Shown here one piece after another: positions 3,646-64,000 of a DNA stretch of 64,000 nucleotides. The stretch is from an uncultured Chloroflexia bacterium (GTDB lineage: Bacteria > Chloroflexota > Anaerolineae > Anaerolineales > Villigracilaceae): NCBI GenBank assembly GCA_963827305.1, contig CAWHAM010000007.1, positions 14,812-78,811 of the forward strand, given 5' to 3'. The notes under the pieces are model-generated. The model did no database searches. It saw only the letters and a list, made by a program, of their open reading frames with translations, and was not told the origin of the DNA. How positions within the stretch are numbered: the first letter of the stretch is position 1; each line of letters opens with the position of its first letter. The position numbers and the translations under genes were made by a program.

Positions 3646-4632
3646 TCAATCCCTCAAGGCACGACCAGTCAGATTGAGAAAGACAGCTTCCAGGTCGGGT
3701 TCATGCACCTCGACCGACTCGACCTGGATCCCGGCTTCATCGGCCAGGCGCAGGATGAAAGGCATGGCCTTGCGGCCGCGCGTGGCATTGACCACCATCA
3801 ATCCGCTGACGTTGGTCTTGTTCCCGCCTTCTTCGCCTGGCGGATCGTAAATGGCCTTGGTGACGCCTTCCACAGAAGTGCGGATGTGCTCCAGTGTTCC
3901 GTTGCTGATGACTGCCTGACCTACCTTGAAGATCAGTCTATCCTGTTCGCCCACCTGCAGGATCAGGTCGCCCGGGGTACCCATGGCGATGATCTCGCCG
4001 TGATCGATGATCCCGACCCGGTCGCTCAATTCCTGGGCTTCCTCCATCAGATGCGTGGTATAGAGCACGGTCATGCCGCGTTGTTCGCGCAGCTGCTTGA
4101 CGGTATCGAGAATGCGCCGCCGGCTTTGCGGGTCGATCCCCACCGTTGGTTCATCCATGTAAATGACCTGTGGATCGTGCAGCAGCCCGGCGGCAATATT
4201 GATGCGCCGCTTCATCCCGCCTGAAAAGGTTTCGATCCGGTCGAATTGGCGATCGCTCAGTTCCACAAATTCAAGCATGGTATCAATCCGTTTGGCCAGG
4301 TCCTTCCCGCCCAGCCCGTACATACGGCCAAAGAACTCCAGGTTTTGGCGTGCATTCAAGGTTGGGTAAAGGGCAATTTCCTGCGGGACAACTCCCAGCA
4401 GGCGCTTGGCTTCCAGCGGCTGGCGGGTGATCGAGTAACCGCCGATGGTTGCATCTCCACTGGTTGGCTCGAGCAGACCGCTGATCATCGAGATGGTGGT
4501 GGTTTTGCCGGCCCCGTTCGGGCCCAGCAGGCTGAAGATCTCACCCTTTTGGATATCGAACGATATCCCTTTCACGGCGGTCAAGTCGCCATATTTCTTG
4601 ACCAGATTTTTTACTTCGAGTATGGCTGTCAT
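3646..4632 (-). CDS. ABC transporter ATP-binding protein (ABC-2/DrrA-like, with C-terminal extra domain)
   Basis: Walker A GPNGAGKTTT, signature SGGMKRR, Walker B VIYMDEPTVGID, H-loop TTHLMEE, plus a roughly 100-aa C-terminal extension. Confidence 0.95.
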   Translation of the reverse strand: MTAILEVKNLVKKYGDLTAVKGISFDIQKGEIFSLLGPNGAGKTTTISMISGLLEPTSGDATIGGYSITRQPLEAKRLLGVVPQEIALYPTLNARQNLEFFGRMYGLGGKDLAKRIDTMLEFVELSDRQFDRIETFSGGMKRRINIAAGLLHDPQVIYMDEPTVGIDPQSRRRILDTVKQLREQRGMTVLYTTHLMEEAQELSDRVGIIDHGEIIAMGTPGDLILQVGEQDRLIFKVGQAVISNGTLEHIRTSVEGVTKAIYDPPGEEGGNKTNVSGLMVVNATRGRKAMPFILRLADEAGIQVESVEVHEPDLEAVFLNLTGRALRD

Positions 4633-44391: not shown

Positions 44392-45714
44392 CTAACCCAG
44401 AGTCTCAGCCTTAGCCTGGGCTGCACGCGCCTCCAGTTGGGTGTGCAGGGATTTGATATCCTTATCCACAAAGAACAGCGCCCCGAGGTACAGGAAAAAG
44501 CAAACGACCCAGGTGGAGACACAGATGGTCAGGATGGCGTGCTGCTTGGTGGTGGCATCCGCAATGATGCCGGCGATCAGGGGCGCCAGGGCCGCGCCGC
44601 TATTCTCAATAAAGTATTCCACCGCCTGCGCCGTGGACCGCACCTCGGGAGGCGTAATATCGAAGATCGTCGAGAGGACGTTGGGTGAAGAGAACGGCAT
44701 GAAGAGCGCCGTCAGGCTCATCAGGATAAAAAAGGTGGTCCGATTCTCGACCGGCGTCAGCAGGGCGAGCAGGAGGAAAATGGCACCCAGGATCACCCCG
44801 GCGCTCGAAGCAATGATGCGGCCCTTTTTCGTGTATTTGAACAAGAGATCGCCCAGCCACCCGCCGACAAAATAACCCAGGGACAGGATTAGGATGACCG
44901 GCCCCATGACAAACAGGACAGAATTATTGTCGTAACCGCGCTCGCTCTGCAGGTAGGCGACAAAGAAATAAGTGATCACATTCCACGGAAACACACCGGC
45001 AAAGCCCTGCAGGAAAATGAACCACATGGTCCTCTTTTGAAGGACTCCCCCCAGCTCTTTCCACGAGAAGTGGAACTGTCCTACGTCCTGCATCCCTTCG
45101 AGCTCCGGTTCGGCTTTGCCGCGGGGGATGTCCTTGATCCCAAAGAAAATGACGACCGCCATAACAATACCGAGCGAACCGGTGATCAAGAAGATCGTCC
45201 GCCACCCCTCAAGATGGAAGATCTTTCCATCCAGGAGCGGTGCGAACATCAAAGCCAGGATCATGCCCATCAGATATCCCAATGGCTGGGGGATCTGCAG
45301 GATGCCGTACACCTTACCGCGTACCTTGGGGCCAAAATAATCCGCCACCAAGCTGTACAGCCCGGGATAGGACGAATCATCGATGCCGGTGGAGGCGCGC
45401 GTACCGAGGAATTGGGGGTAGGTCCGCACCAGGGAACTCAACCAGGTGGTGGCCCCCCAAATGAATGATGCCAACGCCAGCAATTTTGCACGGGTATAGC
45501 GGTCGTACAGGTAGCCCCAAACCGGGAATAGGAGCGTGCCGACGATCAATGCCCCGGTGTTGATCAAACCCCACTGCTTGTTGCTCAGATGAAAGGTGTC
45601 GCTGATGGGGATCTGGAGTGAACCTATCAGGAGCTTATCCGTCTGGTGAAGGAAGATGAACAGGAAGAAAACAATCACAACGAACACAGGGTATAAATTA
45701 CGCTTCTTTTCCAT
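44392..45714 (-). CDS. MFS transporter
   Basis: 440 aa, 12 TM, with the MFS loop motif (GYLYDRYTRAKLL). Confidence 0.85.
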   Translation of the reverse strand: MEKKRNLYPVFVVIVFFLFIFLHQTDKLLIGSLQIPISDTFHLSNKQWGLINTGALIVGTLLFPVWGYLYDRYTRAKLLALASFIWGATTWLSSLVRTYPQFLGTRASTGIDDSSYPGLYSLVADYFGPKVRGKVYGILQIPQPLGYLMGMILALMFAPLLDGKIFHLEGWRTIFLITGSLGIVMAVVIFFGIKDIPRGKAEPELEGMQDVGQFHFSWKELGGVLQKRTMWFIFLQGFAGVFPWNVITYFFVAYLQSERGYDNNSVLFVMGPVILILSLGYFVGGWLGDLLFKYTKKGRIIASSAGVILGAIFLLLALLTPVENRTTFFILMSLTALFMPFSSPNVLSTIFDITPPEVRSTAQAVEYFIENSGAALAPLIAGIIADATTKQHAILTICVSTWVVCFFLYLGALFFVDKDIKSLHTQLEARAAQAKAETLG

Positions 45715-45748
45715 GGATTTAACCTCATTTCAGAAGTTTATTAAAAAA

Positions 45749-45777
45749 AGTGTACAACAAGAAAAGAACCTCGTCAA
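45749..45777 (-). promoter_or_regulatory. candidate sigma70-type promoter for the MFS gene
   Basis: Minus strand reads TTGACG-17 nt-TACACT, about 35 nt upstream of the ATG. Sequence match only. Confidence 0.3.
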
Positions 45778-45827
45778 ACCCCTTTCGTCCCCATCTGCCG
45801 TGACTATCCTTATGCATCTGTTATTTT

Positions 45828-46940
45828 TCACTTTCCGCCCAACACGCGCTGCACCGCCTCACATACCTGATCAAGTTGAGCTTCGCTGAGGGTCATGCCT
45901 GAAGGCAGGTAGAGTCCCTGTCGGGCGATGCGCTCGGCGACCGGGTAATGTTCGCCGAGGAACAAGCCCATGCGCTGAAAAACAGGTTGCTCGTGCATAC
46001 CCAGGAAAAAAGGCCGGGTCATCACGTCCTGCTCTGCCAGCCGGCGTGCAAATTCGACCGCCTCCAAGCCGGTACTTTCATCCAGCACCAGGCCATACAT
46101 CCAATACACATTCCTGGCCCAGGATTCTTCAACCGGCAGTTGCAAACCAGGGACGTGTTTCAAGCGCTCAGTATAGGTCGCCCCCATCCAACGCTTGTGC
46201 GTGATCAATTCTTCAATCCGTTCCAATTGGGCCAGGCCGATGGCAGCCTGCAGGTTGGTCAGGCGATAGTTATGGCCCAGCTCGGTGTGATAGAAACGGC
46301 GCTCTTTTTTAAAGCACAGGTTACGCAGGTCACGCAGGCGTTCCGCCTGGACGGCATCCCGGGTCAAGACCATCCCACCCTCGCCCGTCGTTATGATCTT
46401 GTTGGCGTAAAAACTGAAGCAGCTCAAGTCACCCAGCCCGCCGCATTTACGGCTTTTATACTCGGCGCCGTGCACTTCCGCAGCATCTTCGACAATGATC
46501 AGGTCGTGTTTACGGGCAAGTGCCAACAATGGATCCATATCCACCGGATGACCATAGATATGTACCGGCATGATCGCTCGCGTGCGTGCCGTGATTTTTG
46601 CCTCCACCTGGCTCACATCCATACACCAGGTACGCGGGTCCGAATCGACCAATACGGGCTTCAACCCGCACATGGTCACGGCCTGGGCACAGGAAATGAT
46701 GGTGAAGCTGGGCAGGATAACCTCGTCACCGGGCTGAAGTTCCAGGCATGCCATCGCAATTTCCAGCGCAACCGTACCGTTGCTGACCGCCACGCCGTAG
46801 GACATCCCGCAGTAAGCTGCCCAGCGGTCCTCGAACTCGTGGATAAATCGTCCCTCTGAGGAGATCCAGCCGGTGCGCAGGCATTCCAGCACATATTTGC
46901 TCTCGGATTCACCAACCAGCGGTTCATTGACTGGTATCAT
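45828..46940 (-). CDS. DegT/DnrJ/EryC1/StrS family sugar aminotransferase
   Basis: 370 aa, PLP fold. Motifs AVSNGTVALEIA, DAAEVHGAEY and FYANKIITTGEGGMV (PLP Lys). Confidence 0.9.
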   Translation of the reverse strand: MIPVNEPLVGESESKYVLECLRTGWISSEGRFIHEFEDRWAAYCGMSYGVAVSNGTVALEIAMACLELQPGDEVILPSFTIISCAQAVTMCGLKPVLVDSDPRTWCMDVSQVEAKITARTRAIMPVHIYGHPVDMDPLLALARKHDLIIVEDAAEVHGAEYKSRKCGGLGDLSCFSFYANKIITTGEGGMVLTRDAVQAERLRDLRNLCFKKERRFYHTELGHNYRLTNLQAAIGLAQLERIEELITHKRWMGATYTERLKHVPGLQLPVEESWARNVYWMYGLVLDESTGLEAVEFARRLAEQDVMTRPFFLGMHEQPVFQRMGLFLGEHYPVAERIARQGLYLPSGMTLSEAQLDQVCEAVQRVLGGK

Positions 46941-47048
46941 TTGAATAAACTCCTTATCGAGAATATTTACGAGAATCTATCCAAAAATTGTGCTCCTGGA
47001 GGCATCCCCTTCGTCAGCCAGAGGGGGAAGGTTAATTCTGGATGGAAA

Positions 47049-48014
47049 CTAAATGGTTTGGATCTTGCAGACCCATTCACGTTCGGCCATGTACCAGTCC
47101 ACCAGCCGGTCAATCCCCGCCTCCAGGCCGACTTTGGGTTGCCAATCCAGCATGTTGCGGGCCTTGCTCACATCTGCCCAACTGGTCAGCATATCCGCCG
47201 GGTTGGGCGGGTGCCTTTCGATGATGGCCTTCCTGCCGATGCGTTGCTCGAGCAGCTCAATCAGGCCTTTCATGCTGATCACCTCATGGCCGCCCAGATT
47301 GATGATTTCATATCCGAGCGGCTTCAGGGCGGCAATACTACCGCGAGCAATATCATCCAGGTATGTAAAGCCGCGTGATTGTTCGCCGTCGCCATACAGG
47401 TGCAGTGGTTCCTCTTCACAGATCCATTTGGCGAAGCGGAACATGCTCATATCCGGTCGTCCCGCCGGGCCGTAGACGGTGAAATAACGTACCACACTCA
47501 CATCAATTCCGTACAAATGGTGATAGGCGTGGCACAATACCTCGGCGGCTTTCTTACTGGCCGCGTAGGGCTGAAGGGGTTCACTGCTGGAAGCCGTTTC
47601 CGGCGTTGGATATATCGGGTTTGCGCCGTAAATGCTGGAGGTCGATGCCATCAGGAACTTCCCGATTTCCCTCTGTCGGCATAATTCAAGCAGGTTCAAA
47701 GTCCCGGTCAGGTTGGTTTCATAGAAAGCCCGGGGATTCTCCACGCTGGCCCGTACCCCGGCGCGTGCTGCCAGGTTGATGATTGCGTCGAAGGCAGGAA
47801 GGTTTGTAACCGAAGCGGGATCGGAAATGTCCAGCTTCTGGAATTTAAACCCAGGAAGAGACTGCAACTTCCGCAGGCGATACTCCTTCATGTGGACATC
47901 GTAGGCGTTGTTCAGGTTATCTACGCCCATAACGGTGTGACCTTGCTCGAGCAGCATTTCGCTGAGGCGGCTCCCGATAAATCCGGCTGCACCGGTAATG
48001 AGATAATTTGACAT
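47049..48014 (-). CDS. NAD-dependent nucleotide-sugar epimerase/dehydratase (SDR extended family)
   Basis: GAAGFIGSRL, catalytic YAASKKAAE. UDP-glucuronate/glucose 4-epimerase-like. Confidence 0.9.
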   Translation of the reverse strand: MSNYLITGAAGFIGSRLSEMLLEQGHTVMGVDNLNNAYDVHMKEYRLRKLQSLPGFKFQKLDISDPASVTNLPAFDAIINLAARAGVRASVENPRAFYETNLTGTLNLLELCRQREIGKFLMASTSSIYGANPIYPTPETASSSEPLQPYAASKKAAEVLCHAYHHLYGIDVSVVRYFTVYGPAGRPDMSMFRFAKWICEEEPLHLYGDGEQSRGFTYLDDIARGSIAALKPLGYEIINLGGHEVISMKGLIELLEQRIGRKAIIERHPPNPADMLTSWADVSKARNMLDWQPKVGLEAGIDRLVDWYMAEREWVCKIQTI

Positions 48015-48017
48015 GGG

Positions 48018-48557
48018 CTACAATCCACTCTTCCTGGTCACTGGGCCGGGCTTCTTTCCCGGGCGGATGTAACCAGCCGGAAGTTCAATCGGCATTCTCC
48101 GGTCTCGGAGCATTTTTAATAATACCCGAACGCGTTCTTTTCCAGGCAGGCGCGCATCAAAAATGGCTTCATACCCTGCAAACGGTCCCGAATGCACCAG
48201 GACGGTTTCGCCGGCTTTAAGCACATCGAATAATTCCCCACCGGCTGAGTTTATTTCTTCCACACGCTGCCGGATGGCATGGATCAAGCCGTCCGGTATA
48301 AAAGCCGGCTCACCTCCGAACGCGATCAGGCCGGCAGAGCCAGGCACATATTGCAGGGCCGACATGCCCATTTCCTCCAGATCTGCCTGGACAAAGATAT
48401 ACCCTGGGAAGTAAGGCCTGACCGGTTGGGCCCGCGGGTTGACAACCTGCACCCGGATGCGTGGGGCAAATGTCTCGATCCTGCGGAGTTCAAGTTGTTC
48501 AGCCAGCAATTTTTCCTTATGGGGCTTGCTGTGCAGCACATACCAATAAGCAGTCAT
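48018..48557 (-). CDS. specialised NusG paralog (RfaH/UpxY/LoaP-type; NGN plus KOW)
   Basis: 179 aa. NGN start WYVLHSKPHKEK, PGYIFV, KOW GETVLVHSGPFAGYEAIF. First gene of the sugar-modification operon, with a 3-nt gap to the epimerase gene. Confidence 0.8.
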   Translation of the reverse strand: MTAYWYVLHSKPHKEKLLAEQLELRRIETFAPRIRVQVVNPRAQPVRPYFPGYIFVQADLEEMGMSALQYVPGSAGLIAFGGEPAFIPDGLIHAIRQRVEEINSAGGELFDVLKAGETVLVHSGPFAGYEAIFDARLPGKERVRVLLKMLRDRRMPIELPAGYIRPGKKPGPVTRKSGL

Positions 48558-48781: not shown

Positions 48782-48809
48782 AAAAAAAACAGAGCTTTGT
48801 GAGCCCTGG
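48782..48809 (-). terminator. rho-independent terminator closing the tRNA-Met repeat array
   Basis: Minus strand reads CAGGGCT-CACAA-AGCTCTG-TTTTTTTT. Confidence 0.65.
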
Positions 48810-49150
48810 TTCCCTGTCGGTTGCAGGGGACAGGACATGCCTGGCCCGAATAAGGGGAAACCAGCGTCTAAAATAAAAGACGCCCTCTTGGACGTCTTTT
48901 CAGTTCCGGGGGCTGGACTCGCCTGTCCCCTGCAAGGGGAAACCAGTGCCTAAAATAAAAGACGCTCTCTTGGACGTCTTTTCATTTCCGGGGGCTCGAC
49001 TCGCCTGTCCCCTGCAAGGGGAAACCAGCGTCTACATCAAAAACGCCCTCTCGGACGTTTTTGATTAGTTGCCCGGGCTGGACTCGCCTGTCTCCTGCAA
49101 GGAGAAACCAGCGCCTAAAATAAAAGGCGCCCTCTTGGACGTCTTTTCAG
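48810..49150 (-). repeat. tandem array of four ~82-nt units downstream of tRNA-Met; each holds a terminator-like hairpin plus a partial tRNA 3' third split by a 19-nt insertion
   Basis: Units at 49069-49150, 48986-49068 and 48904-48985, plus a degenerate unit at 48810-48903. Each contains GGGGGCTGGACTCG (the tRNA 3' end, plus strand). Confidence 0.85.
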
Positions 49151-49222
49151 TTGCGGGGGCTGGACTCGAACCAGCGACCTCCAGGTTATGAGCCTGACGA
49201 GCTGCCACTGCTCTACCCCGCG
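49151..49222 (-). tRNA. tRNA-Met (CAT), initiator type
   Basis: CGCGGGGTAGAGCAGTGGCAGCTCGTCAGGCTCATAACCTGGAGGTCGCTGGTTCGAGTCCAGCCCCCGCAA folds as a cloverleaf. C1xA72 mismatch and a CGCGGGG/CCCCGCA acceptor, as in bacterial tRNA-fMet. The 29:41 pair is A:U rather than G:C. CCA is not encoded. Confidence 0.85.
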
Positions 49223-49285
49223 TCGGGTGCACTAAAATCCGGCACTTCAAACGAGCGGCTATTGTACACCACCCATTCGGGTGCG

Positions 49286-50230
49286 TCAAGGATTGAGGAA
49301 GATTTCCTGGCTATAAAGGTACATGATCCCACTGATGCGGTCGTCAAACTGACGGACGACCAGCAATGCCCACATTGCACCGGGAATACGGTAAGCTAGA
49401 TCTACGCGAAAAGGAACGTACCCATCATCCGGGGCGGGCGAAATGGGAACCAGGCTTGTCCCGATTACCTCACCATCCCGGGAGACCAATTCTGCCGTCA
49501 GAGGCAGGTTGTTATAAGGACGCATTTTCCCGCTTACGCTCAGAACCCCTCCCGAGAGGCGCTGTCCTGCAACAGGCTTTTCAATCACACAACGTTCTTG
49601 CAGGTTGCCCGGCGGTGTCACGATCGACGGGCCCTCTGAAAGTAAAAGGAGGTGGACCGAATTCACCGCATTAATCCGGCCATACTCATCCTTGGTGCTC
49701 AGGCTCAATCGACCTAATTCCCCCACCGAACGGGTATTAAAAGAAAGTTCCCAATAGAAAAAAGCCCATTTATAGGGGGTGTTCAACTGTAAAAGTTGCG
49801 AAGCCAAAAGCCGTCCATCCTCGCCATACAAGTCCAGATATCCTTTATTTTCATGGCTAGGAATGGCATATCCATGCACACTGAATGGGGAAACGATCTT
49901 TGAAAGCGGACCGGGGCTGAGGATCTGGATTGCGCCTGAATCGGCGGATGGCTGCGGGACGGATGTCGCGGCCAGGGTCGGCGGTTCCAGGGGTGGAAGT
50001 GGTAGTGGGGTGTCCGTGGGAAGCGCTTGGGGCGTGGGGCTGCCCTCTGGTAGGGTTGAAGAGGCTGTTTCCGAGGTTGGAGGCCTGACAGTGAGTTCAG
50101 GGAGCGCTGTCGTAAACGGGGTGGGCGTATCCGGCAAGCTTACCAGGGTTGGCGGAAGTGTCGATCTTGCCTGGACACAGGCCGTAAGGAGAATAAACAG
50201 GCCACAGGTCAGGAGAAAGCGACGGAACAT
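49286..50230 (-). CDS. secreted lipoprotein with two Gmad2-like Ig-fold domains (tentative)
   Basis: Lipobox LLTAC, Pro/Thr-rich linker, two repeats resembling Gmad2 (IQILSPGPLSKIVSPFSVHGYA... and IEKPVAGQRLSGGVLSVSGKM...). Start set to ATG at 50230. Confidence 0.55.
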   Translation of the reverse strand: MFRRFLLTCGLFILLTACVQARSTLPPTLVSLPDTPTPFTTALPELTVRPPTSETASSTLPEGSPTPQALPTDTPLPLPPLEPPTLAATSVPQPSADSGAIQILSPGPLSKIVSPFSVHGYAIPSHENKGYLDLYGEDGRLLASQLLQLNTPYKWAFFYWELSFNTRSVGELGRLSLSTKDEYGRINAVNSVHLLLLSEGPSIVTPPGNLQERCVIEKPVAGQRLSGGVLSVSGKMRPYNNLPLTAELVSRDGEVIGTSLVPISPAPDDGYVPFRVDLAYRIPGAMWALLVVRQFDDRISGIMYLYSQEIFLNP

Positions 50231-56435: not shown

Positions 56436-56470
56436 CGGGTAGCCAAATGGCTGCCCGATAATTTTATAAG
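56436..56470 (+). terminator. rho-independent terminator after the gltD-like gene
   Basis: CGGGTAGCC-AAAT-GGCTGCCCG followed by ATAATTTTAT. Confidence 0.55.
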
Positions 56471-56727
56471 GGCAATCGCCGACCCTGTTGGATCGGCGGT
56501 AAAAAGAGTCGGGTGCCCGGATTTGCGTCAGTCCCTAAATGGGAAACCGCCGACCCTTTTTGGATCGGCGGTAAAAAAAAGTCGGGGCGCCCGGATTTGC
56601 GTCAGTCCTTCAATGGGAAACCGCCAACCCTTTTTGGATCGGCGGTAAAAAAAAGTCGGGGCGCCCGGATTTGCGTCAGTCCCTCAATGAGAAACCGCCA
56701 ACCCTTTTTGGATCGGCGATAAAAAAA
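56471..56727 (-). repeat. tandem array of three ~73-nt units (plus a hairpin-only remnant) downstream of tRNA-Pro; same architecture as the tRNA-Met array
   Basis: Units at 56655-56727, 56581-56654 and 56508-56580, remnant at 56471-56507. Each unit starts (plus strand) with GTCGGGGCGCCCGGATTTG, which equals the tRNA-Pro 3' end. Confidence 0.85.
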
Positions 56728-56728
56728 G

Positions 56729-56803
56729 TCGGGGCGCCCGGATTTGAACCGGGGACCTCTGCGTCCCGAACGCAGCGCTCTAGCCGGGCTGAGCCACGCC
56801 CCG
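56729..56803 (-). tRNA. tRNA-Pro (CGG)
   Basis: CGGGGCGTGGCTCAGCCCGGCTAGAGCGCTGCGTTCGGGACGCAGAGGTCCCCGGTTCAAATCCGGGCGCCCCGA: 75 nt, cloverleaf, anticodon loop TTCGGGA. CCA is not encoded. Confidence 0.9.
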
Positions 56804-56953
56804 AAAAGTCCCACTCTATGGGACAAGCAAGGCGGGATTATAACTGTCTGCACCTGATTTGACAAGCTGTTTGCGGTATAATCCATTCGATATCTCGATT
56901 ACCCCGTAGGGGCACAGCGACGCTGTGCCCCTACCTTTGTGAGGAATTTTCCT

Positions 56954-61732: not shown

Positions 61733-63010
61733 TTATAAGCCTTCCGTCAAGGTCTCCAAAAATTCCTGATTGTTCCTGGTCTTGGTGAGACGCTGCAGGA
61801 GCGCCTCGGTGGCCATGGAGGAATCCATGCCGGCGCCCTGGGGCGGCGGCGAAACCATCTGGATGTACATGCGTCGCATGATCCAAACGCGCTGGAGGAT
61901 ATCCGGGCCGAGCAGCAGGTCCTCGCGGCGGGTGGAGGAACGTTCGATATCCACAGCCGGGAAAATGCGGCGCTCCTGGAGCTTGCGGGTCAGGATCAAT
62001 TCCATGTTGCCGGTGCCCTTGAACTCCTCGTAGACCACGTCATCCAGGCGGGAGCCGGTTTCCACCAGGCAGGTGGCGATGATGGTGAGACTGCCACCTT
62101 CCTCCAGGTTGCGGGCCGCCCCGAAGAAATGCTTGGGCGGGTACAAGGCCGAGGGGTCCATACCACCGGAGAGCGTACGCCCGGATGGGTTGACGACCAG
62201 GTTGTAAGCGCGCGCCAAGCGGGTGATCGAATCCATCAGAATGACGACATGCCGGCCGATCTCGGTGAGGCGCTTGGCGCGGTCGAGGGCAATTTCGGCC
62301 GTGCGGACGTGCGAGGTGACCGGCTCATCGAAGGTGGAGGCGATCACTTCGGCATCCACCGAACGGTCCATGTCGGTCACTTCCTCAGGGCGTTCACCGA
62401 TCAAGGCAACCATCAGATGCACGTCCGGGTATTGCGTGGAAATTGCGTTGGCAATCTGCTTCAAGATGGTGGTCTTGCCGGCCTTGGGCGGAGAGACGAT
62501 CAGGCCGCGCTGGCCGCGACCGATCGGGACGATCAGGTTGATCAGGCGGGTAGAGAGGATATCGCCCTTGGTCTCCAGGTCGAAGCGCCGGTCGGGGAAG
62601 ATGGGGGTGAGGTCTTCGAAGCGGGGACGGCGGCGGGCGTCCTCGGGGTCGATCCCGTTGACGGATTCCACCTTGATCAGGCCCCAGTGCCGTTCCGATT
62701 CACGCGGCGGGCGGACGTGGCCGATGACCAGGTCACCGGAGCGCATCTCGTAACGCCTGAGCTGGGCCTGGCTGACATAGACGTCATCTTCACTGATGCT
62801 GTAACGGGCCGAGCGCAGGAAACCGATGCCCTCGCTCATGATCTCGAGGATGCCACCGCGCATGTCAATGCCCTGCCGGGCAGCCTCTTCCTGGCAAATG
62901 GACAGGATGAGGGCCTCCTTCTTCAGGCGGTGGGCATTGACCACGTTGAATTCCTTGGCGATATTGCGCAATTCGGCCAAGGGCTTGTTTTCAAGTTCAA
63001 GTATGTTCAT
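61733..63010 (-). CDS. rho: transcription termination factor Rho
   Basis: 425 aa. Rho N-domain and CSD-like RNA-binding domain, Walker A PPKAGKTT, Q/R loops, C-terminal consensus. Confidence 0.95.
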   Translation of the reverse strand: MNILELENKPLAELRNIAKEFNVVNAHRLKKEALILSICQEEAARQGIDMRGGILEIMSEGIGFLRSARYSISEDDVYVSQAQLRRYEMRSGDLVIGHVRPPRESERHWGLIKVESVNGIDPEDARRRPRFEDLTPIFPDRRFDLETKGDILSTRLINLIVPIGRGQRGLIVSPPKAGKTTILKQIANAISTQYPDVHLMVALIGERPEEVTDMDRSVDAEVIASTFDEPVTSHVRTAEIALDRAKRLTEIGRHVVILMDSITRLARAYNLVVNPSGRTLSGGMDPSALYPPKHFFGAARNLEEGGSLTIIATCLVETGSRLDDVVYEEFKGTGNMELILTRKLQERRIFPAVDIERSSTRREDLLLGPDILQRVWIMRRMYIQMVSPPPQGAGMDSSMATEALLQRLTKTRNNQEFLETLTEGL

Positions 63011-63214: not shown

Positions 63215-63299
63215 GCGGGAGGGATAGGAAGAAATTCACCACGAAGGACACCAAGGACACGAAGAAAGAAGAAATGTTTCTTTTGTCAAATGTCAAGTG

Positions 63300-64000
63300 T
63301 CGCGCCACCCCCATAACTGGGGGCTTTCCCCCATTACTGGGGGCTTCCCCTTGCCCCACCCCCGACCCCTCCCCAAATCCTGCGGATTTAGGGAGGGGAG
63401 AACCTGACCCCACCCCCATTCTGGGGGCTTCCCCCATGCACCCTTCGCCCCATGGGGTGCAGGCGGGTACAGGCTGGGGGCTTCCCCTATTCACCCTTAG
63501 CCCCATGGGGGCAGGCGGGTACAGGCTACAGGCTTCTCCTGGCGCTGATCCCAAGCAGGAGAAGGATTTCTTTACAGCGCTATTAAAGTTTTAAGGTTCG
63601 GCACAGGTGAAACCCCCTCGGGGATTCCCAGCAACTCGTGTCCCACCCCCATAACTGGGGGCTTCCCCCATAACTGGGGGCTTCCCCCATGCTAGGGGTC
63701 CTGAAAGTGCACAGGACAGGCAAGCGGGATGCTGCGTGATCGCTGGGACTGCCAATCCTGAAAATACACAGGACTTTGGGGGCTGGAAGCCGCCTCGGGG
63801 AGTCCCAGCGACTCGTGTCGCTGGGACTGCCGATGGCCAGAGTACTGGCCACTTTGGCGGCTTGCCTGCCTGCGCCACTACCACAGGTACAGGTGCACCT
63901 GTGGCGCCCTGCTAATATGCCCTGACAAGAGTAGTCAGGACAGGCAGGGCAGGCAGGCACAGGTGAAGCCCCCTCGGGGAGTATTTGATATTTGAAAACA
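63300..64000. repeat. non-coding field of short GC-rich hairpin repeats (several families); runs to the window end
   Basis: CCCCCAT(A/T)ACTGGGGGCTT at 63308, 63328, 63413, 63646 and 63665. A 52-53-nt tandem duplicate at 63421-63473 and 63474-63525. GAAGCCCCCTCGGGGAGT-like copies at ~63607, ~63787 and ~63964. Perfect 11-bp hairpin at 63802-63827. Confidence 0.7.

Follow-up and report, generated by a model that had tools for sequence, protein, structure and literature searches.

Partial copies of tRNAs beside tRNA genes are usually taken for passive scars left by an integrated phage or island. Williams reportedly pointed in 2002 to the segment from the T-loop to the discriminator as the place where integrase identity blocks classically lie. 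The integration of elements is known to leave partial duplicates of tRNAs at their genes (PMC9897764). Here, we describe arrays of partial tRNA copies in a DNA stretch of 64,000 nt (hereafter, the window) from an uncultured Chloroflexia bacterium of the Villigracilaceae (GenBank assembly GCA_963827305.1, contig CAWHAM010000007.1, positions 14,812 to 78,811 of the forward strand). The window is the part of the genome that was seen, and all window counts and negative results refer to these 64 kb. Each of its two tRNA genes, the initiator tRNA-Met(CAT) (tRNA-fMet) and tRNA-Pro(CGG), is followed by tandem units that contain tRNA-derived pieces and a 19-nt hairpin insert located between T55 and C56 of the T-loop. 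Partial tRNA repeats at tRNA genes are known; the conserved split T-loop and its tandem amplification are new here, and no description of a split T-loop module was found in literature searches. We tentatively read the arrays as the tandem amplification of a "split T-arm cassette" that grew by unequal recombination, with the stacked terminators as a by-product; this explanation is favoured, although we place it slightly short of an even chance.

Array Downstream of the tRNA-fMet Gene

The tRNA-Met(CAT) gene was identified by ARAGORN and Rfam at 49150/49151–49222 on the minus strand. Taken as 49151–49222, it is initiator-type, does not encode CCA, and has the T-arm GCTGG-TTCGAGT-CCAGC; the initiator marks C1xA72 and A11:U24 can be read in its sequence. 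Directly 3' of it lie three good units and one degenerate unit, each of ~82 nt. Tandem Repeats Finder gives a period of 82, 3.9 copies, and 84% matches for 48852–49168, and positions 56–73 of the tRNA itself (49151–49168) are taken as repeat copy 0. The presence of tandem units of ~82 nt behind a tRNA-Met, reported in an earlier note made from the sequence of the window, is borne out.

Each unit consists of an A-tract/stem/T-tract terminator hairpin, a copy of tRNA positions ~44–55 (AG(G/A)CGCTGGTT), the 19-nt hairpin insert, and a copy of positions 56–73. Direct reading supports the four-part plan given in the earlier note, with AG(G/A)CGCTGGTT ahead of each insert. The sequence AGGCGCTGGTT matches positions 44–55 of tRNA-fMet in 11 of 12 bases, and the 19-nt insert comes next. 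The exact 19-mer TCCCCTTGCAGGGGACAGG is found at 48922–48940 and 49004–49022; the copy at 49087–49105, in the first unit (A1), has two compensatory changes (TCTCC/GGAGA). There are three copies of the 19-mer in 64 kb, all inside the array, against a chance expectation of 0. The 3' pieces match tRNA positions 56–73 at 16/18 in A1 (49069–49086), 16/18 in A2 (48986–49003), and 17/18 in A3 (48904–48921), that is, at the level of 16–17 of 18 claimed before. The position of the insert between T55 and C56 is unique, and re-phasing is impossible. Since the tRNA homology resumes on both sides of the insert, the unit is no plain att-type duplicate, as had been argued.

Unit A1 (49069–49150, minus strand, as are all the units) begins with the terminator GACGTCC-AAGA-GGGCGCC and a T-tract, which are followed by the 5' piece GGCGCTGGTT (49106–49115), the insert TCTCCTTGCAGGAGACAGG (49087–49105), and the 3' piece CGAGTCCAGCCCGGGCAA. 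In unit A2 (48986–49068; insert at 49004–49022), the terminator stem has compensated changes, AAAAACGTCC/GGGCGTTTTT. Unit A3 occupies 48904–48985, with its insert at 48922–48940. The last unit, A4 (48821–48903), had been called degenerate; it is diverged, yet of full length, and is composed of a terminator, GACGCTGGTT, the insert TCCCCTTATTCGGGCCAGG (48840–48858), CATGT, and CCTGTCCCCTGCAA (48821–48834). Its last 14 nt, CCTGTCCCCTGCAA, are the exact reverse complement of the 3' 14 nt of the insert, TTGCAGGGGACAGG, and A4 ends, therefore, in an inverted copy of the insert 3' end. Beyond it, at 48782–48820 (minus strand), there is a remnant resembling an inverted 5' piece, GGGAACCAG, and then the distal intrinsic terminator CAGGGCTC-ACAA-AGCTCTG with T8. 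This strong terminator (hairpin at 48790–48808, then T8) closes the array, and a second hairpin reads GCGCC-N10-GGCGC in A1 and GCGTC-N10-GACGC in A4; both features are present as previously described. The spacer hairpins of this array and of the tRNA-Pro array, and the distal hairpin, score as intrinsic terminators, while the 19-nt insert itself does not.

Second Array at tRNA-Pro(CGG)

Apart from tRNA-fMet, the window has a single tRNA, tRNA-Pro(CGG) (56729–56803, minus strand; T-arm CCCGG-TTCAAAT-CCGGG; promoter at 56837–56865), and it also carries a 3' array of the same plan. The earlier note has neither this array nor the spread of the insert to other loci and genomes. The units escape tRNA finders: besides the two intact tRNAs, nothing was called by ARAGORN or by the Rfam tRNA model. 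With positions 56–73 of tRNA-Pro as repeat copy 0, the array spans 56470–56746, with a period of 74, 3.8 copies, and 92% matches, and comprises three 74-nt units at 56508–56728 (minus strand). Each unit runs from a copy of C56–A73 through C and T7–8 to an 11-bp hairpin, ACCGCCGATCC-AAAAA-GGGTTGGCGGT, followed by the 19-nt insert and the next C56. The 3' strand of the hairpin resembles tRNA positions 44–55 and ends in GGTT. The 3' piece CAAATCCGGGCGCCCCGA is present in two exact copies (18/18, 56656–56673 and 56582–56599) and in a third, degenerate one (~56508–56525). The insert, TC(T/C)CATT..GG(G)ACTGACG, is 19 nt long at 56674–56692, 56600–56618, and 56526–56544. A terminal partial unit (56470–56507, minus strand), made up of a T-run and a hairpin, ends in GGCGATT, after which the sequence is unrelated.

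When comparing the two inserts, a difference in sequence can be noted, together with the same length (19 nt) and the same site between positions 55 and 56. They have ~11–13 bases in common and share a plan (U, C-rich arm, loop, G-rich arm, A-C, purine-rich tail), and their homology rests on those bases and on this plan. Two independent tandem duplications would not be expected to share their end points by chance. The T-stem of the tRNA-Pro units is down to 3 pairs. The context of the tRNA-Pro array is a conserved core without an island, with gyrA upstream and a conserved convergent gene.

Copy Number in Relatives and Growth of the Arrays

The tRNA-fMet loci of relatives were found via contigs encoding homologues of the upstream Gmad2-like gene, which has many homologues; two of these are labelled Anaerolineales or Chloroflexota by their sources. 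The promoter-like site of tRNA-fMet, TTGACG-17-TACAAT (49261–49289, minus strand), is kept in L079, L080, L082, and L083–L086. In related Anaerolineales, the syntenic tRNA-fMet is followed by 0, 1, or 3 units. Zero units were found in L083 and L086, where the tRNA is followed by the native terminator alone; the terminator kept in L083 is clearly that of the units of the window. One unit is present in L003, with the 5' piece GCTGG where the tRNA of L003 has GGTGG, and one decayed unit with a 17-nt insert is present in L080. The L082/L087 locus has three units and a partial one, which derive from a duplicated 141-nt super-unit, and alternate spacers there are without a terminator; this assembly has many broken genes, and single-base details in it are less reliable. 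In L087 (contig_101340 of ERZ25039515), the MacB, peptidase M32 (three pieces), and NusG (82 aa) genes are split, which points to an indel-rich assembly. The first unit of L087 is located 13 nt after the tRNA with no terminator between them and, judging by this arrangement, would be co-transcribed with it. At the tRNA-Pro locus of L087, the hairpin and the insert occur once, the 3' piece is not repeated, and the flanking genes are conserved.

The DNA 3' of tRNA-fMet differs among relatives. An intact Xer-like tyrosine integrase is encoded directly after tRNA-fMet in L084 (L084:3683-4678), with an IS66 transposase next, whereas L085/L088 contain an integrase remnant and an excisionase-family gene, followed by a NusG paralogue with 81% identity (L085:3722-3964, 4164-4391). 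This suggests that the polysaccharide cluster of the NusG paralogue travels as island cargo. The 3' side of tRNA-fMet is a hot spot of recombination and integration, and the number of units there changes fast.

Growth by unequal recombination, which had been put forward as one possibility, is well supported by the 0, 1, or 3 units in relatives, by the 141-nt super-unit in L087, and by the distal copies being the most degenerate. The distal-most fMet copy is the most diverged and contains an inverted duplication, and the tRNA-Pro array ends in the degenerate third 3' piece and the truncated unit. Degenerate distal copies and an inverted duplication fit the dynamics of recombination or template switching. 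Because, in addition, the copy number varies and a super-unit is duplicated, the arrays behave as unequal recombination or slippage predicts.

The amplification that we favour may have proceeded as follows. The cassette would be a pseudo-copy of the last third (~44–73) of the neighbouring tRNA, carried together with the tRNA's own terminator. Its T-loop would be split at the tip, where a 19-nt module consisting of a U-closed G/C hairpin and a short purine-rich tail separates T55 from C56. The cassette probably originated from a partial tRNA duplication at the recombination-prone end of the tRNA, after which a small hairpin element would have been gained at the loop tip. A single cassette beside the tRNA creates direct repeats of at least 50 nt (3' piece and terminator), and unequal homologous recombination or replication slippage could then expand and contract the array. 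The outcome would be a stack of intrinsic terminators and a hairpin-rich trailer RNA behind a strongly transcribed tRNA. The cassette is a DNA feature of tRNA 3' flanks, single-copy in some relatives. The anatomy of the units, their recurrence at two tRNAs, the variable copy number, the covarying hairpin, and the wide distribution are observations; we infer both the origin of the first cassette and the absence of a dedicated function. The lineage amplifies other 19-nt hairpins beside tRNAs as well.

The terminators themselves could have been what was selected, the arrays being stacked bidirectional-terminator insulators that separate the highly expressed tRNA from the operon of the NusG paralogue at the fMet locus or from the convergent gene at the tRNA-Pro locus. 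The A-tract/stem/T-tract hairpin of each fMet unit, the strong terminator at the end of that array, the terminator-like score of the 11-bp hairpin in the tRNA-Pro units, and the pairing of the terminator stems, held via compensatory changes, all agree with this. However, it leaves the tRNA-derived pieces and the 19-nt insert unexplained, units without a terminator occur in L087, the NusG operon is shared by L080, which has a single degenerate unit, and by L085, which has no unit at all, and the tRNA-Pro array is not ahead of a nusG-like operon; selection for insulation is, in our view, very unlikely. It is scarcely credible that the repeat number is an assembly artefact. Assemblers do struggle here: the short-read contigs L079 and L081 stop within or shortly before the first unit, L079 having at least one unit and its contig end inside a unit. 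Nevertheless, the units differ mutually at many positions, including compensated pairs, and arrays are present at two loci and in the independent assemblies L087 and L001.

Pairing and Covariation

Pairs were counted in an alignment of 15 units with 49 columns. The structure of the aligned units exceeds that of shuffled and slid controls. The covarying arms are TCTCC/GGAGA, TCCTC/GAGGA, and TCCGCC/GGCGGA, with G.U intermediates. In the flanking T-stem, 80% of cells are paired, and the variation is inherited from the differing tRNAs; in the terminator stems, pairing is preserved through compensatory changes. With a covariance model of the fMet-type units (R1), real T-arms can be aligned to the units once the insert is treated as a deletion (32 bits). 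A4 is matched weakly by R1 (13 bits, E 0.22), and tRNA-Pro-type units were not detected by this model.

The properties of the insert weigh against the amplification of an accidentally formed cassette, since an accidental origin leaves the position and length of the insert unexplained. It is exactly 19 nt long and exactly between T55 and C56 in two sequence-unrelated versions in one genome, and it is found behind different tRNAs in other phyla. The fMet-type insert is identical in 19 of 19 positions between diverged genomes whose flanking protein is only ~70% identical and whose nearby spacer DNA has diverged. In the hairpin of the insert, 97% of cells are paired across the 15 units and 2 pairs change on both sides, the pairing surviving both compensatory and wobble changes. 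The fixed site and length, the identity, and the preserved pairing suggest selection on the module itself, either as RNA or as a protein-binding DNA site. To our knowledge, no mechanism for placing a hairpin at the tip of a T-loop has been described.

If the selection acts on RNA, the unit could be a functional structured RNA in the tRNA 3' trailer, in which a T-stem encloses a T-loop with an extra hairpin at its tip and is followed by a single-stranded acceptor 3' strand. It could serve as a mimic or decoy for a factor with affinity for the T-arm or for the 3' end of the tRNA, such as RNase Z, the CCA-adding enzyme, an enzyme that modifies the T-loop, or a toxin directed at tRNA; alternatively, its role could lie in processing or stability. 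Besides the covarying hairpin, the 19-nt length held in two different sequence versions, the identical insert across diverged genomes, and the presence in Chloroflexota, Patescibacteria, and a Nitrospirota metagenome-assembled genome (MAG) are in line with such a role. Judged by the established structure of the T-loop, the loop tip should be the least disruptive site for an insertion, and the first unit of L087 would be transcribed with the tRNA. At the same time, the module is dispensable: four close relatives are without it, and its copy number is variable. A terminator precedes every unit of the window, and little transcription is expected to reach the units. Folds predicted for single units (window, L082, and L003) are only modestly below shuffles (z = -0.4 to -1.9), and the wobble and mismatch cases, 3 versus 2 between the strands, show no clear preference for either. 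Finally, the T-stem of the tRNA-Pro units has only 3 pairs, a 5' acceptor strand is absent, and in Rfam 15 the tRNA model alone matches, even at E up to 10 for the window or 1 for the related loci. On balance, we regard a functional RNA as unlikely, if still worth considering.

Distribution beyond the Anaerolineales Locus

The genomes (one per species) and the metagenomes were each scanned by a single exact-pattern search, the metagenome pattern being relaxed. The invariance of GGTTT and GACAGGCGAGTCC among the matches is, in part, a product of the search pattern. The fMet-type module was found in four places of the genome scan, L003 among them. In the Leptolinea UBA5203 MAG, two units are located behind tRNA-Val(CAC); their 3' pieces match that tRNA, and there is a second hairpin in the acceptor strand. 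Elsewhere in this MAG, also at a contig end, four or more units form an array with a Pro-like acceptor strand. A Nitrospirota MAG contains the module once, with no tRNA within the 8 kb examined.

In the metagenomes, the relaxed pattern matched two contigs of low GC content that have the module after tRNA-Val(CAC); one of them (L006) belongs to Patescibacteria, as judged by its CCA-adding enzyme. The matches in the low-GC contigs are not due to chance, since the bases left free by the pattern still pair as a hairpin (TCCGCC/GGCGGA) and the 5' piece is similar to the tRNA next to it.

Several further details of these contigs can be noted. In L006:1500-1740 and L005:140-400, a functional tRNA-Val(CAC) is located between inverted repeats, which form a perfect 17-bp pair in L006 (TTATCCCTCACCATTTG / CAAATGGTGAGGGATAA) and are shorter and imperfect in L005. 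This tRNA appears to be nested in a degenerate second tRNA-Val-like sequence, with a 5' fragment upstream and the rest downstream, where it contains hairpin insertions. It might be a complete outer tRNA with hairpins in each of the three loops, although a part of it simply has the Anaerolineae order of terminator, 5' piece, insert, and 3' piece. Some units in Leptolinea and in the Nitrospirota MAG have a further hairpin inserted in the acceptor-strand copy or immediately 3' of it, AAGCACTCCCGCAGGGAGCAAG in the former (L004:2233-2262, 2344-2373) and GCCGCCCGAGGGGCGG in the latter (L002:7536-7565); in style, it is like the T-loop insert.

A patchy distribution across phyla is typical of mobile DNA, and the insert might target the T-loop, either as a tiny non-autonomous element or as that half of a site-specific recombination site which comes from the element. 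The unit would then be an attR-like hybrid of an element arm (...GGGGACAGG), the crossover region CGAGT, and the host tRNA 3' end, and the arrays would arise via recombinase-mediated unequal exchange between the resident site and the T-arm or via repeated integration of a minimal att unit. The repeated tRNA segment runs from the T-loop to the discriminator, and the order seen is exactly what would follow from unequal exchange of the T-arm with a resident site. In the fMet units, TTGCAGGGGACAGG-CGAGT-CCAGCCCCCGCAA is a quasi-palindrome with 13–14-nt arms and with the core geometry of the Xer/lox type, and A4 holds the perfect inverted partner CCTGTCCCCTGCAA. The Xer-like integrase and the excisionase-family protein encoded after tRNA-fMet in L084/L085, with the variable downstream DNA, point in the same direction, and the 5' piece of L003, which differs from its own tRNA, hints at an imported unit.

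Other observations speak against such a site. Neither a recombinase nor a transposase nor a reverse transcriptase was found among the 39 large window open reading frames (ORFs) scanned against Pfam, and tblastn searches of the window with the integrase and excisionase of L084/L085 yielded nothing. By inspection, the quasi-palindrome fails for the tRNA-Pro, tRNA-Val, and Patescibacteria versions. The likeness of the 5' piece to the neighbouring tRNA is not expected of an att hybrid; the inter-copy segments are duplicates of one another, not independent remnants; and the tRNA-Pro locus has no island. No true copy of the motif was found in viral contigs of IMG/VR, where 72 relaxed matches look like chance in unrelated sequence, and a BLAST search of phage and plasmid records gave no match. 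Reasoning through tyrosine and serine crossover models, we could not obtain a 19-nt insert between positions 55 and 56. A recombination site is thus rather improbable, if still worth considering. Serial integration and excision, as envisaged in the earlier note, has indirect support only: tRNA-fMet is an integration hot spot in relatives, with an intact integrase in L084 and the remnant of one beside an excisionase-family gene in L085. It is at odds with the near-identical inter-copy segments, the missing tRNA-Pro island, and the lack of a recombinase among the scanned window ORFs.

There is some possibility, though a doubtful one, that the module, GGTT - U-hairpin-AC(A/UGAC)G(G) - C(G/A)A(G/A)UCC, is in itself something undescribed that spreads horizontally and is confined to the tip of the T-loop: either the core of a new kind of small T-loop-targeting recombination or insertion system, or a new tRNA-derived structured RNA, a T-arm with an extra arm. 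Under the latter reading, the host range of the RNA would comprise tRNA trailers of Chloroflexota, Patescibacteria, and other phyla; under both, the window arrays would be the amplified form of the module. What distinguishes the copies described here from integration scars is the precisely placed, length-conserved, covarying hairpin at the loop tip, which recurs behind different tRNAs and in distant phyla. If it were a true recombination site, it would represent a new way for mobile DNA to use the universally conserved T-loop box; if it were a true RNA, it would be a new tRNA-derived structural module, possibly a decoy or processing signal in organisms in which CCA is not encoded. In both cases, annotators gain a recognisable signature, and the tRNA flanks of Anaerolineae can be flagged as hot spots of tandem-hairpin amplification that break short-read assemblies.

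Neighbouring Genes and Other Hairpin Repeats

Outside the repeat, the fMet array is followed by a NusG paralogue (48018–48557, minus strand; RfaH/UpxY/LoaP-like, under all curated cut-offs). It heads a four-gene sugar-modification cassette, the other members of which encode an epimerase, a DegT aminotransferase, and an MFS transporter (44392–48014). The promoter of this cassette, GAGAATTTGTTATAATG, is conserved, and housekeeping genes come next, so the operon is short here. The downstream genes of relatives were sought in the window in order to delimit an island, and none were found. Exact look-ups with two proteins of the window returned no record.

Hairpin repeats of other types are present near tRNA-Pro. 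In L087, the promoter of tRNA-Pro and the tRNA itself are separated by a 5' leader (L087:2099-2294) in which a 19-nt hairpin, GCTTGTCCCATGAAATGGG, is present in 10.3 tandem copies, and the window has one copy of this leader hairpin, GTCCCATAGAGTGGGAC, at ~56806–56830 (minus strand). The arms of the leader hairpin, TCCCAT..GGGAC, agree with the 19-nt insert found in the 3' array of tRNA-Pro. Immediately ahead of the tRNA-Pro promoter, L087 also contains 2.1 copies of an 89-nt unit (L087:1886-2065), which the window lacks.

A gene at 61733–63010 (minus strand) is read as rho from its translation. The ~1 kb upstream of it (63295–63980) is dense in repeats: a 19-nt hairpin unit, CCCCCATAACTGGGGGCTT, is both tandem and dispersed, a 53-nt unit is present twice, and further repeated modules are GGCACAGGTGAAGCCCCCTCGGGGA and GGACAGGCAAGCGGG. 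Loosely similar hairpins with a C-run and a G-run cluster in the window only upstream of rho, at 63.3–64.0 kb. These repeats may belong to the same hairpin family as the hairpins of the tRNA flanks.

Comparison with Known Systems

Several mechanisms known from other repeats and mobile elements were considered and rejected. For a CRISPR-like array or a homing-spacer guide RNA, unique spacers are needed, whereas all parts of the unit are repeated, and no Cas domains were found. Type III toxin–antitoxin repeats would be placed just ahead of an endoribonuclease toxin gene; what lies downstream is instead, for the fMet array, the NusG paralogue with the sugar-modification genes and, for the tRNA-Pro array, the convergent gene. 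The R''/R' boxes (GTTRRRY) of integron attC sites are absent. Neither serine-recombinase or IS607-type crossover at GG or TT nor tyrosine crossover at the borders of the T-loop reproduces the junctions GGTT/T... and ...AGG/CGAG. For IS91/Helitron-like or IS200/IS605-like ends (GTTC target or TAM, subterminal hairpin, flank guide), the phasing is wrong and 19 nt is too small. A tRNA minihelix mimic or a lox/dif-like palindrome holds for the fMet units, and is striking in A4, but fails in the other versions and is kept as a lead only. An extended CUG/CAG helix with a GUU bulge, a k-turn, and pairing between the insert loop and the T-loop are not conserved, and an antisense promoter in the spacer is implausible.

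Tandem intrinsic terminators behind strong RNA genes resemble the arrays in their stacked hairpins and U-tracts behind a tRNA; in the window, however, the terminators are embedded in repeats with tRNA-derived sequence and a conserved insert. The tRNA-like modules (tmRNA domain, YrlA/Y-RNA-like RNAs, T-loop motifs) likewise reuse the T-arm and acceptor strand outside tRNA, and a T-loop may tolerate additional elements at its tip. In contrast to them, the window units lack the 5' acceptor strand and an Rfam match, and they are tandem and variable in copy number.

The short non-canonical tRNA introns of archaea (Thermoproteales; in the T-loop and at other positions) resemble the inserts described here in that both are hairpin insertions of 12–30 nt at loop positions of tRNA-like sequences; some of the present loci (L004, L005, and L006) have several insertions per sequence. 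Here, the hosts are bacterial, the interrupted sequence is the 3' third only (Anaerolineae) or a degenerate copy, and the functional neighbouring tRNA is uninterrupted. An archaeal intron of the bulge-helix-bulge type was rejected, as no 4-bp helix with 3-nt bulges can be drawn around GGTT-insert-CGAG, and the units are without positions 1–43.

Palindromic repeats of the REP/BIME type and of other short families, among them hairpin elements inserting into stem-loops, are short, G/C-rich hairpins of fixed size, like the insert, and similar 19-nt hairpins are present in tandem elsewhere in the lineage (in the leader of tRNA-Pro in L087 and upstream of rho in the window). The fMet 19-mer, even with up to 3 mismatches, is found only within the array in 64 kb; the insert is always at one position of a tRNA-like sequence, and no associated transposase was seen.

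The closest likeness is to the partial tRNA repeats of att sites, including the degenerate arrays of tycheposon or ssrA islands. In both cases, the tRNA 3' end from the T-loop to the discriminator is repeated downstream of an intact tRNA, and the repeat of C56–A73 in the window, at 16–18/18 (fMet) and 18/18 (Pro), is a feature of this type. Moreover, tRNA-fMet is used by an integrase-bearing element in relatives, and the DNA 3' of the tRNA is hypervariable. An integrase after tRNA-fMet was seen only in the relatives L084 and L085. In the window, on the other hand, the copies are 56–64 nt apart with no element DNA between them, and no integrase was found in 64 kb. The window units also contain the 5' half of the T-arm, and the sequence on the element side is itself tRNA-related. 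Unlike att repeats, the window units have a T-loop split by a conserved 19-nt hairpin, and one of the two arrays, that of tRNA-Pro, lies off islands.

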